This document shows, piece after piece, positions 6,999 through 12,671 of a DNA stretch of 64,000 nucleotides (position 1 is the stretch's first letter; every line of letters starts with the position of its first letter). Made by a program: the position numbers and the translations under genes. Location of the stretch: contig CAWHAZ010000003.1 in assembly GCA_963827475.1 (NCBI GenBank), forward strand, positions 64,001 to 128,000. Reading direction: 5' to 3'. Source of the stretch: an uncultured Chloroflexia bacterium. Lineage in GTDB: Bacteria; Chloroflexota; Limnocylindria; QHBO01. The notes under the pieces are model-generated. The model saw nothing but the letters and a program-made list of their open reading frames with translations, made no database searches and had not been told where the DNA came from.

Positions 6999-9230
6999 CT
7001 ACTCCAGGTAGTCCTTCAGCTTGCGACTTCGGCTCGGGTGCCGGAGCTTGCGCAGGGCCTTGGCTTCGATCTGGCGGATCCGCTCGCGGGTCACGTTGAA
7101 GTCGCGGCCTACCTCCTCGAGGGTCCGTGACCTTCCGTCCTCCAGGCCGAAGCGGAGCTGGAGGACGCGCCGTTCGCGCGGTGTGAGCGAGTCGAGCACA
7201 CCCTCCACCTGCTCCTTGAGCAGCTGGTGCGAGGCAGCATCCGCGGGCGCGACCGAAGCCAGGTCCGGGATGAAGTCGCCCAGGTGGGAGTCCTCCTCCT
7301 CGCCGATCGGCGTCTCGAGGCTGACCGGCTCCTGGGAGACCTTCATGATCTCGCGAACCTTCTCCGGGCTCACCGTCTGCGGCCCAGCCGCCTCGCGCTT
7401 GTCGACCTCGGCCTCGGTCGGCTCGCGCTCGAGCTTGTCGCGCAGCTCGCGGACGATCTCGTCGCGGCTCATCCGCCGCGCGATCTCCTCCACCGTCGGC
7501 TCGCGCCCGAGCTCCTGGAGCAGGGTGCGGCTGACCCGGATCAGGCGGTTGATGGTCTCCACCATGTGGACCGGGATCCGGATCGTCCGGGCCTGGTCGG
7601 CGATGGCGCGGGTGATCGCCTGCCGGATCCACCACGTCGCATAGGTCGAGAACTTGAAGCCCTTCTCGTACTCGAACTTCTCGACCGCCCGGATGAGGCC
7701 GATGTTCCCCTCCTGGATGAGGTCGAGGAAGCTCATCCCCCGCCCGATGTACTTCTTCGCGATGCTGACCACGAGCCGGAGGTTGGCCTCGGTCAGCCGG
7801 CGGCGGCCATCGGTGCTCTGCTCGACGAGGCGACCGGTGCGCCGCTCGAGCGGGACCTCCGGCGGGATGGCCGGGTCGTAGCCCATGGACTTCATGTACT
7901 CGGCGTCGTGGCCGGCCTCGATGTAGGCCCGGGTGATCCCTTGTGCGGTTTCACGCGCCCAGCGCTCGAGACCGTACAGCTCTTCCTTCCCGGGCTGTTC
8001 GAGGACCTTGAACCGATAGGTGTGACCGAACAGCACTGCGTCCTTCAGCGCCTGGCCCGGGTCGGTCGCCACCGACTTCAGGAGCGACTCGGCCTCGAGG
8101 ATCCGCTGACGGCCTTCGTCATCGAGTTCCGGGTCACGCCGCGCCTTCGTGAACCGGATGTTCGGCCGCTCGATGAGGTTCTTCTTCCTCTTCACCCACC
8201 AGTCGATCGCGTCGAGCGTGACGTGGGGCGAATCCTGGGGCAGGTCGAAGGCGCGCATGGCGGCCATCGCCCGCGCCTTCGGCTCCGAGTTCAGGGTGAC
8301 CCAGGTGTACAGGTTGGTCATCGCCCGCCCGGGGTCCTCGATCGCCAGCTCCCCGAGCTCGATGGCCTTGGCCAGGACGACCTCCTCCTCGGCGGTGAGC
8401 AGGGCGACCTTGCCGATCTCCTTGAGGTACATCCGGACCGGGTCGTCGATGCCGATCAGGTCGGCGGCGAGCGCCTCGAGGTCCTCCTCGGGTTCCTTCT
8501 CGGCCTTGCCTTCCGCCTCTTCCTCGCCGGGTAGCGAGACGGCGACGTCGTCGGCGGGCTCGCTGAACGTGGGCTGGTTCTCCGCGTCGAAGACCTCGAC
8601 CCCCTGCTCCTCGGCACCGGCGAACAGGTCCTCGACCGCCTCGAGGTTCGTCTCCGGGCTCGGAACGGCAGCCAGAATCTGGTCGTGGGTGATGAACCCG
8701 TCCTCGCGGCCGTGGGACAGGAGATCCTCGACAGCCGACGCCGCTTCCGGCGAAGCCTCGGACGAGATCGGCGTGGACGAGGCCTTTGTGGCCTTCCCCG
8801 ACTTGCGAGCGGCCGGCCCGGTTGGCACCGCGCCCTTGGCAGCGCCCTTCGAGGAGGTGACCTTCGTCGCCGTAGCCGTAGCCGTGGCCGTGGAGCCTGT
8901 GGCCTTGGTGGTCGTGGTCCTGGCCGGGGCCGCCGTCTTCGCCGGGGCAGCCTTTGCCGGGGCAGCAGCCTTCGCTGCAGCTGCCTTGGCGGTGGTCGGC
9001 TTCTCGGTCTTCGGTGCTGCCTTCAGTGTGGCCTTCGTCGCCGCCGACGCGGTACTCACCGCCTTGGCCGGTGGCTTGGCTGGCGCCTTGGCCGAGGCGG
9101 CCCTGGCCGCGGTCGCCTTCATCGGTGCGGCCTTCGTCGCCGCCGTCTTGGCTGACGCCGTCTTCTCAGGTGCCTTGGTTTCGGCCTTCGCGGACTTGGC
9201 CGGCTCACGGGTTGGGGTCTTCACCGCCAC
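6999..9230 (-). CDS. rpoD: Primary RNA polymerase sigma factor RpoD/SigA with Ala/Lys-rich N-terminal extension
   Basis: [81 protein letters not shown]; follows dnaG. Confidence 0.97.
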
Positions 9231-9232
9231 GT

Positions 9233-11050
9233 TCAGGATCCTCCTTGCGCCGGAACGGCCGGCGTCGCCAACATTCGGGTGACCTCGGCCTTCTCCCGGC
9301 CGAGCTGAGTGATGTGCGTTTCGATCTGCGCCAGGAGCTCGCGGTCGCCATCGCGTTCCGCGTCCTCCAGCAGGTTGCGCCCGTCGCCGATGGCCTCCTC
9401 GATCCTCGCCCGGCGCAGTCGCAGGCGGCAGACCCGCAGCGCCTCGGCAGCGATCGCCGGCTCGAGACGTGGCGCCGAAGCAGCGGCCTCGATCACGGCC
9501 CGCGCCAGCTCGGTGGAGACTGGATCGAGTCCGGTCAGGAAGCCTTCCACGTCGACCGGGCTCGATTCGGAAGCCGCGACCCAGCTGCGCCAGGCCTCGG
9601 CCAGGGACGCTGCCTCAGGGCGCCCCAAGGGCAGCGGGTTTGCCTCCAGGTCCACGGTGAGCGAGGGATGTCGGATGAGCAGGGCCAGGGTCTCGGTCTC
9701 GACCGCGTCCAGGGCGGGCGTCCCGGGTCCAACGGGCTCGGACTGCGCCGCTGCGGGTCGTCGCTGGAGCCGCGGCCGTGCCAGACCCTCGCGCAGGATC
9801 TTCTCGTCGACCTTCACGATGCGCGACAGCTCCTGGACGTAGAGATCCTGGACGACCGAATCGGTCACCCGCTGGAGCTTGGCCAGGACGCGTCCGGCCA
9901 TCTCGCGGCGGCCCGCGACGGTGTTCAGGTCCACGCGCGCGGCCTCGCGCTCCATGAAGTAGTCGATGAGCGGCTTGGCATTCTCGATCGCTTCGCGCCA
10001 CGCGTCGGGATCGGTCTGCAGGAGCTCGGCGGGATCCTTGCCGGCCGGGATCCGGATCACGCGCAGCTTGGTCACGCTCTGGCTCGGACCGAGCTCCTCG
10101 AGCAGCCCGCGCTCGGTCGCGGCCTCGCCGGCGAGGTCCACGTCGTAGGCAAGGGTGATGGCATCCGCGTAGCGGGTCACGATGTCCACCTGGCCGCGAG
10201 TCAGCGCGGTCCCCATGGATGCCACGACGTTCGTAAAACCAGCCTGGTGGGCGGCCATGACATCGGTGTAGCCCTCGACGATCACCGCCAGCTTCTCGCT
10301 GCGAATGGCGGCCCGCGCGAGGTCGATCCCGTACAGCGTGCGGCTCTTGTCGAAGAGTGGCGTGGCCGGGGAGTTCAGGTACTTCGGGCCCTCCCCATCC
10401 GGCATGACCCGGCCGCCAAGCCCGGTCGCTCGACCGGACGCGTCACGGATCGGGATGATGATCCGCCGTCGGAACCGATCCACCGGCCGACCACGCTGGC
10501 CCATCGACGCGAGGCCGGCCGCGACCATCTCCTCCGACGAGAAGCCGCGCGACGCGAGCCGCTTGACGAGGGCATCCCAGCTGTCGGGCGCGAAACCGAT
10601 GGCGAACCGATCCAGGGTCTCGTCGGAGAAGCCGCGCTCGGCGAGATAGCGACGGGCAGGCTCCGCCTGGCGGGCCTGGCGCAGGACCTCGCGGTACCAG
10701 GCGATGGCCGCCTCCAGGGCATCGCGCAGCCGCTTGCGACGACGATCCTCCCGAGCGCCAGCCGCGGACAGCTCCACGCCGGCTCGCTCGGCCAGGCGGC
10801 CGAGGGCCTCGCGGAACTCGATGCCGTCGCGCTTCATGACGAAGGTGAAGATGTCTCCGTGCTCGCCGCAGCCGAAGCAGTGCCACGACTCGCGCTCCGG
10901 GCTGACGGTGAACGACGGGGTCTTCTCGACGTGGAACGGGCAGAGGCCTTTCATCGTCGAGCCGGCACGTTTGAGCACGACCGTCTCGCCCACGATTTCG
11001 GCGACGGGCAGGCGGGATTTGATTTCGGCGACGGAGCCGGGTGAGCTCAT
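9233..11050 (-). CDS. dnaG: DNA primase
   Basis: CPFH..CFGC zinc finger, KYLNSP, TOPRIM VEGYTDV and YDVDLAG. Confidence 0.97.
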
Positions 11051-11079
11051 GGGAGGGTCCTGCGCGCCACTGGGGCGCG

Positions 11080-11141
11080 TGTCAAGTGATTTGTCAAGAG
11101 TTCTGTCAAGTGTCCAGACCCCATTTTAACCCATTGTCAAG
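11080..11141 (-). repeat. Four CTTGACA boxes (three at 12-bp period) between dnaG and the sigma-like gene
   Basis: TGTCAAG on + strand at 11080, 11092, 11104 and 11135, plus a 1-mismatch copy at 11111; locally AT-rich; TAAAAT on the minus strand at about 11123-11128. Confidence 0.8.
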
Positions 11142-11211
11142 CGATCCCAGCGCATTTGGTAGTCCACCCGCGTGACTGGAGTTCAAACGCCCGTGGGCTA
11201 CCATCCGTGAC

Positions 11212-11751
11212 GTGGAGGAGCACTCGCAGGAGCGGGACTTCGTCGAGCTGCACGGCGACCGTTTGCTGGGGTTCGCCATGCTCCTCACGCTCGGAGACGC
11301 GTCGCGGGCGGGGCGACTGACGTCCCAGGCGCTCGGCGCCGGCGTGAAGCGCATCGACCAGCTGCGGCATCCGGTGCGGGCGGCGGCATGGCTTCGGGGG
11401 CAGGTCACCCAGGCCGCGGGCCTCCCCGCGTGGGGGCAACGGCGTCCCAACGAGACAGAGCGACGAGATGCGCTCCGGTCGATGGGGGTGGACCCCGCGA
11501 CGTATGACGCCCTGGCCAGTCTGAACGTCCGCAGCCGCGCGGCAGTGGTCGCGACGGCGGTCGAGGGATTCGCCATCGCCGATGTGTTCGAGATCGTGGG
11601 CAGCGACGAGCGGGTGCGGACGGCGCGCCGCGACTTCCTCACCGCGTACCTCGCCGCCTCGGAGGCGCGCGACTCCACTCCTCCCTCGGGCGAGCTCACC
11701 GCGCGGGTGCGCGCCGCCGCCGGCGGGATCATGGCCGAGTCCCGGGAATGA
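11212..11751 (+). CDS. Degenerate ECF sigma-70-like protein
   Basis: Region-2-like FVELHGDRLLGFAMLLTLGD...QLRHP..AAWLR and region-4-like ALASLNVRSRAAVV..VEGFAIADVFEIVG; canonical AEDLVQ replaced by AGRLTSQ. Confidence 0.65.
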   Translation: MEEHSQERDFVELHGDRLLGFAMLLTLGDASRAGRLTSQALGAGVKRIDQLRHPVRAAAWLRGQVTQAAGLPAWGQRRPNETERRDALRSMGVDPATYDALASLNVRSRAAVVATAVEGFAIADVFEIVGSDERVRTARRDFLTAYLAASEARDSTPPSGELTARVRAAAGGIMAESRE

Positions 11752-12671
11752 CCGATTCGCACGATCTGCTCGAGTCCTGGCTGATCGAGGGGGCGGTGGG
11801 CGATCCGCCGCGGGAGCTGGCCGTTCACGCCGCCGTGTGCGACTCCTGTGGGCAGCGACTCGGCGCGTTCGACTCGCTGGCGGTCGTCGACGTGGCCGCC
11901 GCCGGCTCTCCGCCGCCGGTGGCCTCGCCATCGCGGGTGGTGGCCGCGCTCCTGTGGGCGCGCACCGGGACGGCCGTGGTGGCTACGGTCGCCGCCGGCG
12001 TCCTCGTCGTCGTGGCCGCGACACAGCTGGCGGGGATCGTTGGCGGCCTGCCGGCACCTTCGGACGGCGTGGCGTTCGAGACCGGCTCCGGCGCGCTCTC
12101 ATCGGACGAGTCGGGGTCGCGCGGTCCCGAGCCGGCGGGCGAACCCAGCGTCCCGGGGCCGACACCCACCCCGATCCCGACCTTCATTCCGCTGCCGACC
12201 GTCGCCCCCGGCGCAGCGCCCTTGGCCGCGCCGTCCGCTCCCATCCTGGTCCGGGGAGCGGTCACCCAGAGCTCGATCAACATGTTCTGGACGAATGGGA
12301 GCGGCGGCGGCCCGGTGCAAAAGTGGGACGTCTGGCGCCGCATCGGTACCGGGACGTGGCAGAAGCTCGGGGAGCTGCCCGCCGGCACGCACAGCATGAC
12401 GAACTCGGGGCTCGCGTCCGGCACGAGCTATTCGTACCGGATCCGGGCCGTCAACACCAGCGCGCTCGGCTCCTTCTCGAACACGATCACGGGCACGACC
12501 CTGTCTCCGCCGGCCCCGACCCCAACACCGGCCCCAACCCCGCCCCCACCGACGCCCACGCCGGAACCATCGATCCCGGACACGCCGCCGCCCACGCCGG
12601 AGCCGACACCCGAGCCAACCCCGGAACCAACGCCACCGCCGCCGACACCGGACCCGTCGGCGACGCCCTGA
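11748..12671 (+). CDS. Putative zinc anti-sigma (ZAS) membrane protein with extracytoplasmic fibronectin type III domain and Pro/Thr tail
   Basis: HAAVCDSC (HxxxCxxC), one hydrophobic helix, FN3 signature (W..., GLASGTSYSYRIRAVN..GSFS), PTPE repeats; ATGA-coupled to the upstream gene. Confidence 0.75.
   Translation: MTDSHDLLESWLIEGAVGDPPRELAVHAAVCDSCGQRLGAFDSLAVVDVAAAGSPPPVASPSRVVAALLWARTGTAVVATVAAGVLVVVAATQLAGIVGGLPAPSDGVAFETGSGALSSDESGSRGPEPAGEPSVPGPTPTPIPTFIPLPTVAPGAAPLAAPSAPILVRGAVTQSSINMFWTNGSGGGPVQKWDVWRRIGTGTWQKLGELPAGTHSMTNSGLASGTSYSYRIRAVNTSALGSFSNTITGTTLSPPAPTPTPAPTPPPPTPTPEPSIPDTPPPTPEPTPEPTPEPTPPPPTPDPSATP

Follow-up and report, generated by a model that had tools for sequence, protein, structure and literature searches.

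The window analysed here is a stretch of 64,000 nucleotides (contig C3:64001-128000) from a 1.92 Mb genome that is 90% complete and belongs to an uncultured soil lineage; close protein relatives and related contigs are labelled Candidatus Limnocylindria or Chloroflexota. This report concerns two overlapping genes in the window, here called gene 1 and gene 2, whose divergent upstream neighbour is dnaG-rpoD (6999..11050, - strand). In brief, gene 1 encodes a protein folded like the sigma factors of extracytoplasmic function (ECF), while gene 2 encodes a membrane protein resembling a zinc-binding anti-sigma (ZAS) factor. Together they are a real, conserved and selected two-gene module, derived from an ECF sigma/ZAS anti-sigma pair, in which the canonical polymerase contact has been lost. 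We tentatively suggest that the gene-1 protein derives from a sigma, has ceased to act as a standard ECF initiation factor and is bound by an anti-sigma in the membrane. The features of the pair are as follows.

11212..11751, + strand: gene 1, a GTG-start open reading frame (ORF) of 179 amino acids with the ECF sigma fold, consisting of a sigma-2-like domain, a sigma-4-like domain and an extra C-terminal helix
11305..11328, + strand: RAGRLTSQ, gene-1 residues 32-39, which the hhalign mapping puts where canonical ECF sigmas have the acidic sigma-2.2 motif (D)AED..QE
11362..11397, + strand: near-invariant patch LRHPVRAAAWLR, gene-1 residues 51-62, where the specificity loop ends and the next helix begins
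11575..11649, + strand: sigma-4.2-like helix-turn-helix, gene-1 residues 122-146, with a five-residue deletion at the start of the recognition helix
11689..11745, + strand: extra C-terminal helix, gene-1 residues 160-178, G-x-L-x-x-R-V-x-x-x-A, which the genome's own canonical ECF sigmas lack
11748..12671, + strand: gene 2, an ATG-start ORF of 307 amino acids encoding a single-pass membrane protein
11748..11912, + strand: zinc-motif anti-sigma-like domain, gene-2 residues 1-55, presumably cytoplasmic, with H5, H27, C31 and C34
11973..12029, + strand: transmembrane helix, gene-2 residues 76-94, from hydropathy
12249..12494, + strand: FN3 domain, gene-2 residues 168-249 (Pfam fn3, E 7.3e-8), an accessory part
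12495..12668, + strand: Pro/Thr-rich low-complexity tail, gene-2 residues 250-307, from composition

Gene 1 and gene 2 overlap by four nucleotides (ATGA). The original prediction, made from the letters of the DNA, had described a two-gene unit coupled in this way, with gene 2 carrying HxxxCxxC, one transmembrane helix, an FN3 domain and a Pro/Thr stalk. The reading frames and their overlap confirm the unit, and each of these elements is present in the gene-2 protein of the window.

Gene 1 lies outside the curated sigma factor models. TIGR02983, the SigE family model of NCBIfam, matches residues 6-130 with E 7.5e-9 and 35.7 bits, the cut-off being 141.55. The sole Pfam match is PhyR_sigma-like (E 0.0018, residues 101-134), and no match to Sigma70_r2 or Sigma70_r4_2 was found in Pfam at E<=1. 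Six-frame searches of the own genome with PF04542 (Sigma70_r2) and PF08281 (Sigma70_r4_2) did not return gene 1 at E<=1 and gave 12 and 13 other places above the cut-offs, respectively. A word-indexed search for relatives gave 66 proteins at E<=1e-3, and an exhaustive search gave 164 cluster representatives, 129 of them at E<=1e-10. The profile A2 is made of the window protein and 64 near-full-length proteins, chosen among 150 listed of the 164 representatives. None of these 65 members matches Sigma70_r2, 21 match Sigma70_r4_2 and 18 match PhyR_sigma-like (PF22233) at E<=0.01, while 51 match TIGR02983 below its threshold and 22 match NF006623. A protein atlas gave only unnamed clusters, or clusters with partial r4_2 membership, which we treat as leads and not as evidence.

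The ECF sigma fold that had been proposed for gene 1 is well supported by profile and structure comparisons. Alignment of A2 with nine canonical ECF sigmas of the own genome (hhalign) gave a probability of 97.6% with E 1.7e-11 over 153 columns and both domains; the match stops at gene-1 residue 160. The AlphaFold2 model of gene 1, made with A2, has nine helices, a predicted local distance difference test score (pLDDT) of 94.4 and a predicted template modelling score (pTM) of 0.85. The best rows of a Foldseek search with this model are ECF sigmas, with a best E of 2e-3 and none at E<=0.001. Using VIA-align, the model superposes on EcfG in its NepR complex with Z 13.8 and a root mean square deviation (rmsd) of 3.3 over 149 residues, followed by SigG1 (Z 12.7), SigW-RsiW (12.5), PhyR-NepR (11.9) and CnrH-CnrY (11.8). 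The best 12 rows are all ECF sigmas or PhyR sigma-like domains (Z 8.7-13.8), and PhyR structures range over Z 8.0-11.9. From these superpositions the model is a compact sigma-2/sigma-4 pair as found in anti-sigma complexes. Residues 94-155 superpose on DNA-bound sigma-E region 4 (2h27_D; Z 5.3, rmsd 2.0, 62 residues). Matches of the A2 profile to PDB chains are almost confined to region 4, the best being RT-PhyR 9by5_A (E 1.6e-6) and Mycobacterium tuberculosis SigE (E 2.6e-5), and the nearest canonical sigma of the own genome is very distant from gene 1 (E 0.045). By fold and homology gene 1 is related to the ECF (group 4) sigma-70 proteins, but it stays below the curated Pfam and NCBIfam thresholds.

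The contact with beta-prime is where gene 1 departs from the canonical pattern. In the open complex of sigma-ShbA, the ECF sigma that transcribes hrdB in Streptomyces, D60 and E64 pair with three arginines of the beta-prime coiled coil and Q63 bonds E370, according to the available text of PMC12019637. Profile-profile mapping aligns (D)AED with R32-A33-G34-R35 of gene 1, and the QE pair with S38-Q39. What the original prediction had noted in the window protein, the loss of the acidic motif, extends to the whole family. Among 100 orthologues, five have an acidic residue at position 35 and 49 have Arg there, 17 have an acidic residue at position 34, and in 97 the net charge over positions 32, 34 and 35 is zero or positive. 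At position 38 Ala, Gly or Ser prevail. In the own genome, the equivalent of position 35 is D or E in 11/11 ORFs around Sigma70_r2 matches, one of these matches being below the cut-off. The clamp-helix stretch YRRVINRNNRLSRLL is kept in the beta-prime subunit of the own genome, and gene 1 lacks the acidic/polar region 2.2 that contacts these clamp helices. We infer that gene 1 may no longer form a canonical holoenzyme.

Conservation across the same 100 orthologues is very uneven. The 12-residue patch LRHPERAAAWLR (residues 51-62) has a mean conservation of 0.98 and the region-2.1 helix 0.84. The values are 0.58 for the 2.2 motif, 0.44 for residues 63-78, 0.49 for the start of the 4.2 recognition helix (residues 130-137) and 0.52 for the C-terminal helix, which spans residues 161-178 in the model and follows a glycine, G160, kept in 96/100. 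As far as the letters tell, the near-invariant patch argues for a retained nucleic-acid or partner site. The shortening of the region-4.2 helix that had been reported is real as a five-residue gap, but it is a trait of one clade: the G130-A138 spacing is seven residues in eight orthologues, which form the clade of the window, 12 residues in 91 and nine in one. As a control we used a canonical ECF sigma of the own genome (C5:995590-996198) and its orthologues, taken from the same 14 genomes as gene 1, namely those in which loci of both were located, with no genome flagged unpublished among them. (The tally of 41/41 genomes for the control includes four that are so flagged, G062, G068, G074 and G082, which enter no other result.) These orthologues share 67-85% identity with the copy of the own genome. 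Their columns have a mean conservation of 0.81, and most of those in the 2.2 motif, the 2.3-2.4 helix and the 4.2 helix score at least 0.9. For gene 1 in these 14 genomes the identity is 38-65% and the mean 0.57, with values of 0.2-0.7 in residues 63-78 and 130-137.

The gene-2 translation contains H27-x3-C31-x2-C34. A class I zinc anti-sigma domain is defined by Hx3Cx2C spread over helices 2 and 3 with a further ligand in helix 1 (available text of PMC7406223), and gene 2 has both the motif and the helix-1 ligand. In the alignment A4, which holds 57 N-termini (the window protein and 56 of 94 relatives), H5, W11, R22, H27, A28, C31, C34 and D42 are invariant. In the PDB the A4 profile matched two ChrR sequences, with the motif as the aligned part (E 0.0094 and 0.0098), and besides these just one unrelated row, 9r8w_Q (E 1.3). 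With four invariant candidate ligands and the ChrR match, the proposal of a ZAS-type partner stands. The model of the N-terminal domain (pLDDT 90.5, pTM 0.66) has helices at residues 2-13, 22-30, 32-46 and 49-52, so that the motif His belongs to helix 2 and the two Cys fall where helix 3 begins. The zf-HC2-type Pfam models gave no match in 88 orthologues at E<=0.01, nor in the window protein at E<=1, and Foldseek with the anti-sigma domain alone returned only RseA-N (E 8.7). We suspect a fourth helix ahead of the membrane helix, where W70, A71 and R72 are conserved.

Gene 2 has a single hydrophobic stretch, with a Kyte-Doolittle maximum of 2.24 at residue 76. A 19-residue hydropathy segment of at least 1.6 is found in 93/95 orthologues, and at residues 67-88 in all but one. 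The part beyond the membrane helix is variable. Among the complete orthologues (88 of 94), eight have fn3, three have TSP3-type repeats and 77 have no Pfam domain there. With fn3 in only 8/88, the FN3 domain is an accessory of some lineages, that of the window included, and the idea of an FN3 receptor that senses the envelope is not supported for the family. The tail of the window protein contains 23% Pro and 14% Thr, and the tails of 12 examined orthologues are Thr/Ser/Ala-rich with 10-33% Pro. In eight orthologues of set A3 (P0072, P0086, P0091, P0093, P0095, P0096, P0100 and P0101) the C-terminus carries Cys/Asp-rich repeats, C-x-D-G-x-D-N-D-x-D-G, which resemble calcium-binding repeats, are assigned to the TSP3 type by Pfam in 3/88 and replace or come after the FN3 domain.

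The gene pair is single-copy within one Limnocylindria family. We searched 61 genomes of the class with a close-clade profile, A1, made of the window protein and 17 of the 66 relatives. It matched in 19/20 genomes of the family of the window (f1) and, weakly (E 1.8e-7), in 1/19 of family f2, with no match in f3 (0/17), f4 (0/3) and f5 (0/1). In four f3 genomes A2 gave only weak cross-matches to other sigmas (E 6e-8 or worse). One f1 genome, G051 (92% complete), has no A2 match. It lacks the gene-2 N-terminus as well, and the control genome G003 gave one match at the expected place.

Linkage to dnaG-rpoD is conserved, as had been proposed. In all 20 loci of the A1 search, the own locus included, dnaG lies divergently upstream and the gene-2 N-terminus downstream. 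Among 80 further loci from species-representative genomes, dnaG is adjacent in 77; the misses are L072, with a flank of 4 kb and no dnaG, and L112 and L125, with flanks below 650 nucleotides. The gene-2 N-terminus was found by tblastn in 78 of the 80 (misses L063 and L100). On the other side gcvT is kept in only 7/99 relatives (L027, L029 and L047-L051), and the dnaG side is therefore far more stable. Recurrence in 99 related loci means that the pair and its features are not due to chance.

A script found a downstream ORF with HxxxCxxC within the first 70 residues in 94/99 relatives, and in 84 of these 94 it overlaps the gene-1 stop by four nucleotides. Of the misses, L066 has the motif but no start codon was picked, and L100 stops at the contig end. 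Two loci have genes 1 and 2 in frame as a single ORF with HxxxCxxC (L039:310-975, - strand; L072:3947-4666, + strand), and L063 has a fused ORF without HxxxCxxC that retains the membrane helix and the tail. These fusions could be natural or assembly errors.

Both genes are under purifying selection. The ratio of nonsynonymous to synonymous substitutions (dN/dS, Nei-Gojobori), from 24 non-overlapping pairs picked from 79 candidates, ranges from 0.06 to 0.34 in gene 1, from 0 to 0.39 over the first 60 codons of gene 2 and from 0.04 to 0.19 in dnaG. Gene 1 is thus intact in relatives and not a decaying copy, which agrees with the original prediction. For 64 loci with complete data, the tree lengths are 33.3 for gene 1, 33.1 for the gene-2 N-terminus and 11.2 for dnaG. 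Patristic distances of gene 1 correlate with those of dnaG (r 0.64) and of the gene-2 N-terminus (r 0.66), as expected if the genes are inherited vertically and change together.

Four metatranscriptome runs of one rhizosphere study, depleted of ribosomal RNA, contain contigs that are 90-99% alike to the locus. These cover both genes and bridge the junction at 11748 in 4/4 runs. The summed contig depth is lowest at 11135-11201 (6.9, 0, 2.6 and 3.9 in the four runs). It should be noted that contigs are blind to transcript starts, ends and strand, and that RNA libraries may contain DNA, so expression is supported and not proven.

The pair shares a control region with dnaG. The features on this side of gene 1 are:

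6999-9230, - strand: rpoD, group-1 sigma with regions 1.1, 1.2, 2, 3 and 4 (Pfam)
9233-11050, - strand: dnaG, DnaG primase with zinc ribbon, catalytic core, Toprim and DnaB-binding domains (Pfam)
11051..11211, no strand assigned: intergenic spacer of 161 bp with four direct TGTCAAG boxes and an ATTTTAA stretch, given as context and not shown to be part of the module
11080, 11092, 11104 and 11135, direct: TGTCAAG boxes, forming an array at 11080-11141
11123-11129: ATTTTAA stretch

The whole window contains five TGTCAAG, 2.2 being expected. The box was found in all 93 related spacers that could be delimited, and 92 of them share one layout: a box, 11-12 bp, a box, 30-32 bp and a box, anchored about 30 nucleotides from the dnaG start. 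ATTCTA or ATTTTA stands seven nucleotides ahead of the distal GTCAA core, so that the dnaG strand reads TTGACA-N6-TAGAAT. On this strand the boxes read CTTGACA, which is the sigma-A -35 hexamer of the genome, and TAGAAT/TAAAAT lies only six nucleotides from the distal box; elsewhere the genome has TTGACA-N17-TAnnnT. The boxes are not ordinary sigma-A promoters: no TAnnnT lies 16-18 nucleotides downstream of any of them, and a consensus scan gave 0 promoters. On the gene-1 strand they resemble the -10 elements of GTC type used by ECF sigmas. The own genome has the tandem pair only once, and its TTGTCAA form likewise occurs once per genome in 5/5 other f1 genomes, which argues against a regulon marked by such tandems.

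Boxes upstream of dnaG are also present in G051, where the neighbour is pyruvate-phosphate dikinase, and in four f3 genomes, where they partly form an inverted repeat. Since G051 and these f3 genomes lack the gene pair, the boxes predate genes 1 and 2 and do not depend on them. We therefore dropped them as gene-1-dependent targets, and by the same observation the repressor option of the original prediction, applied to dnaG-rpoD, is not supported. We regard the array as a putative operator, or as a site of autoregulation, for the primary-sigma operon. As RNA-library contigs on the dnaG side stop at 11106 and 11110, the dnaG 5' leader may include three of the boxes.

The only recurrent element upstream of gene 1 is a TA[CGA]A[CA]T hexamer (81/93 loci). 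We found no conserved -35 hexamer or ECF-type promoter in the 45 columns upstream of it in 38 alignable loci, where only a few single G or C columns reach 60%. A leaderless transcript from TACCAT (11199-11204) was considered and dropped, as RNA-library contigs already begin at 11176 and 11180. The sequence GGCTACCATC at 11190-11208, 8-19 nucleotides before the gene-1 start, is found only in the clade of the window (L027, L029 and L047-L051) and has no Shine-Dalgarno match. It is not the -10 element of the transcripts seen, because RNA-library contigs begin further upstream.

We propose that genes 1 and 2 would be a vertically inherited, co-transcribed pair descended from an ECF sigma and its class I zinc anti-sigma. 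Gene 2 would sit in the membrane, with its three-helix zinc-motif domain in the cytoplasm, where it may bind the gene-1 protein. Binding is indirectly supported by the four-nucleotide overlap, the two fusions that carry the motif and the joint loss in G051. As the acidic residues that dock on beta-prime are lost and the -35 helix is free to vary, we consider a pseudo-sigma the most likely, if tentative, explanation. Selection would retain the region-2.1 helix, the surface normally covered by anti-sigma helix 4, and the basic/aromatic patch LRHPERAAAWLR at the place of the -10 reader, together with the extra C-terminal helix. The gene-1 protein would be sequestered and then released, perhaps by a change at the zinc/thiol site or by cleavage of the membrane anchor, and once free it may act through the invariant patch on nucleic acid or protein. 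The overlap of the pair, the invariant zinc ligands, the joint loss in G051 and the lack of a conserved ECF promoter of its own support this proposal.

The arrangement is that of the known ECF/class I ZAS pairs (SigW-RsiW, sigma-E-ChrR and SigH-RshA) in several respects. These have the sigma-2/sigma-4 fold and a coupled anti-sigma gene directly downstream, and their anti-sigmas have Hx3Cx2C over helices 2-3 of a three-helix bundle, a further His in helix 1 and then one membrane helix. The predicted compact state of gene 1 superposes on anti-sigma-bound sigmas of this kind. Unlike those pairs, gene 1 is below every curated sigma model, its beta-prime contact is neutral or basic family-wide, its -35 helix is unconstrained, and it has an extra C-terminal helix and no conserved ECF-type promoter upstream. 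The extracytoplasmic part of gene 2 also differs, being mostly a low-complexity Pro/Thr/Ser tail.

Several observations weigh against a pseudo-sigma. The most conserved stretch of gene 1, residues 51-62, is exactly where ECF sigmas read and melt the -10 element, and a working sigma-2 domain would match it. Position 39, the E of the QE pair, is acidic in 57/100 orthologues, and purifying selection keeps both sigma domains and the linker. A sigma with one or few targets could let its -35 head drift along with its promoter. Neither a downstream partner nor a target on which a pseudo-sigma would act was found. The anti-sigma domain matches known folds only weakly, every VIA-align score being below Z 5; RsiW (Z 4.0, rank 2) and RslA (Z 3.2, rank 28) are tied with unrelated helical proteins.

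These points lead to the strongest alternative, that gene 1 is a working, atypical ECF sigma, which the ZAS membrane anti-sigma holds until an envelope or redox signal releases it. Such a sigma would contact the core without the acidic 2.2 motif, rely mainly on -10-type reading by the invariant patch and serve a very small regulon, possibly its own operon or the neighbouring primary-sigma operon. It is because the invariant 12-mer sits at the -10 reader that we put a pseudo-sigma forward only tentatively and give this alternative a serious, if lesser, chance. The predicted fold is intact in both domains and the genes are under purifying selection in the classic operon with an anti-sigma. The near-invariant region matches the contacts of sigma-ShbA, whose equivalent region reads and opens the -10 element, and the residue at position 39 is often acidic. 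The fixed place beside dnaG-rpoD, on the stable side of the locus, would suit it too, and there is a precedent in sigma-ShbA (ECF40s2), an ECF sigma with only two targets that transcribes a principal sigma gene (available text of PMC12019637).

The tie to the primary sigma gene is, however, positional only in the case of gene 1. According to the same text, ShbA keeps D60, Q63 and E64, has no anti-sigma and is not adjacent to hrdB. Here no sigma-specific rpoD promoter was found, and the conserved boxes predate the gene pair, so that the only strongly conserved elements of the dnaG promoter occur also in genomes without gene 1. Further points against a working sigma are the reversed charge at the beta-prime contact position, the unconstrained -35 head with its indel and the absence of a conserved ECF-type -35/-10 pair upstream of gene 1. 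Gene 1 also evolves 2-3 times faster than dnaG, and faster than the canonical ECF sigma in the same genomes.

An extended form of the pseudo-sigma proposal, in which a free-standing sigma mimic of a new kind, gated by the zinc anti-sigma, has abandoned holoenzyme formation, retains the -10-reader patch and uses this patch at the dnaG-rpoD/gene-1 region or on RNA polymerase and thereby tunes the primary-sigma operon to the envelope or redox state, appears unlikely to us.

Still less probable is a decoy of the PhyR kind, in which the gene-1 protein and a true ECF sigma from another locus compete for the gene-2 domain, so that the level of the former sets the activity of the latter. PhyR models are among the best matches of the family (PF22233, NF006623 and 9by5_A), PhyR structures superpose well, and degenerate sigma motifs are what is described for sigma mimicry in the available part of PMC7826278. 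The PhyR-NepR-EcfG system likewise has a sigma-like two-domain module with degenerate sigma functions, and PhyR binds an anti-sigma, as the gene-1 protein may do. The 179-amino-acid protein has, however, no receiver domain or other switch, its partner is a membrane ZAS-type protein and not a small NepR, and its lineage is Chloroflexota. Translational coupling and occasional fusion suit a dedicated 1:1 pair better than a competitor, both genes were lost together in G051, and the great distance of the nearest canonical sigma in the own genome leaves no obvious second client.

We regard a phosphorylation-gated sigma of the ECF43/EcfP type, one of the options named in the original prediction, as very improbable. 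In such a sigma a Ser/Thr phosphate would replace the charge of region 2.2. ECF43 sigmas, EcfP with its kinase PknT among them, also lack the DAED of sigma-2.2 and are inactive until phosphorylated (available text of PMC8999054), and the motif of the window protein does contain T37 and S38. Across the 100 orthologues, however, Ser/Thr at positions 32-39 reaches a maximum of 33/100 (position 37), and Ala is commonest at positions 37 and 38. The conserved unit has an anti-sigma and no kinase, the neighbours being dnaG and a variable gene, whereas ECF43-type groups are without anti-sigmas as far as the same text goes. A decaying, non-functional remnant of an ECF pair, lying beside dnaG by chance, would fit the fast evolution and the failed sigma models but is scarcely credible and is contradicted by the selection data, given open frames in 99 related loci, low dN/dS in both genes, an invariant patch and four invariant zinc-ligand positions, and RNA-library contigs across the junction.

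Pairs of an ECF sigma and its anti-sigma, which rank with the most common signalling devices of bacteria, are catalogued largely by Pfam matches. ECF classification 2.0 omitted ECF-like proteins whose sigma-2 or sigma-4 domains miss the Pfam models (available text of PMC7826278). The gene-1 family cannot therefore have been grouped there and stands outside the catalogues, which bears out the expectation that gene 1 has no described ECF group. Our literature searches found no description of the family; one paper retrieved with the lineage and 'sigma factor' only counts sigma factors in its available text (PMC13212565). The module is conserved and under selection in a form that retains the fold and the anti-sigma partner but not the polymerase contact and the -35 head. 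If the protein is a free-standing mimic, sigma mimicry would extend beyond PhyR to another phylum and to proteins without a receiver domain. If it is still a sigma, the acidic beta-prime contact would be dispensable without phosphorylation. Either outcome bears on predicting sigma function from sequence. The practical reach is limited, as the soil lineage is uncultured and the function is deduced from comparison.

Downstream of gene 2 (3') lie a GCV_T-family gene and a DUF2269 gene (Pfam). In the primary sigma encoded by rpoD (743 amino acids), region 1.1, which begins at residue 165 in Pfam, is preceded by an N-terminal extension that is about 160-190 residues long and has a high content of Ala, Lys, Thr and Pro. 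The beta-prime subunit, encoded outside the window (G000:C3:131001-135404, - strand, 1468 amino acids), has some 250 extra residues inserted in the stretch from about residue 150 to about residue 400. This insertion is rich in Ala, Glu and Lys, is probably helical and lies directly ahead of the clamp helices.

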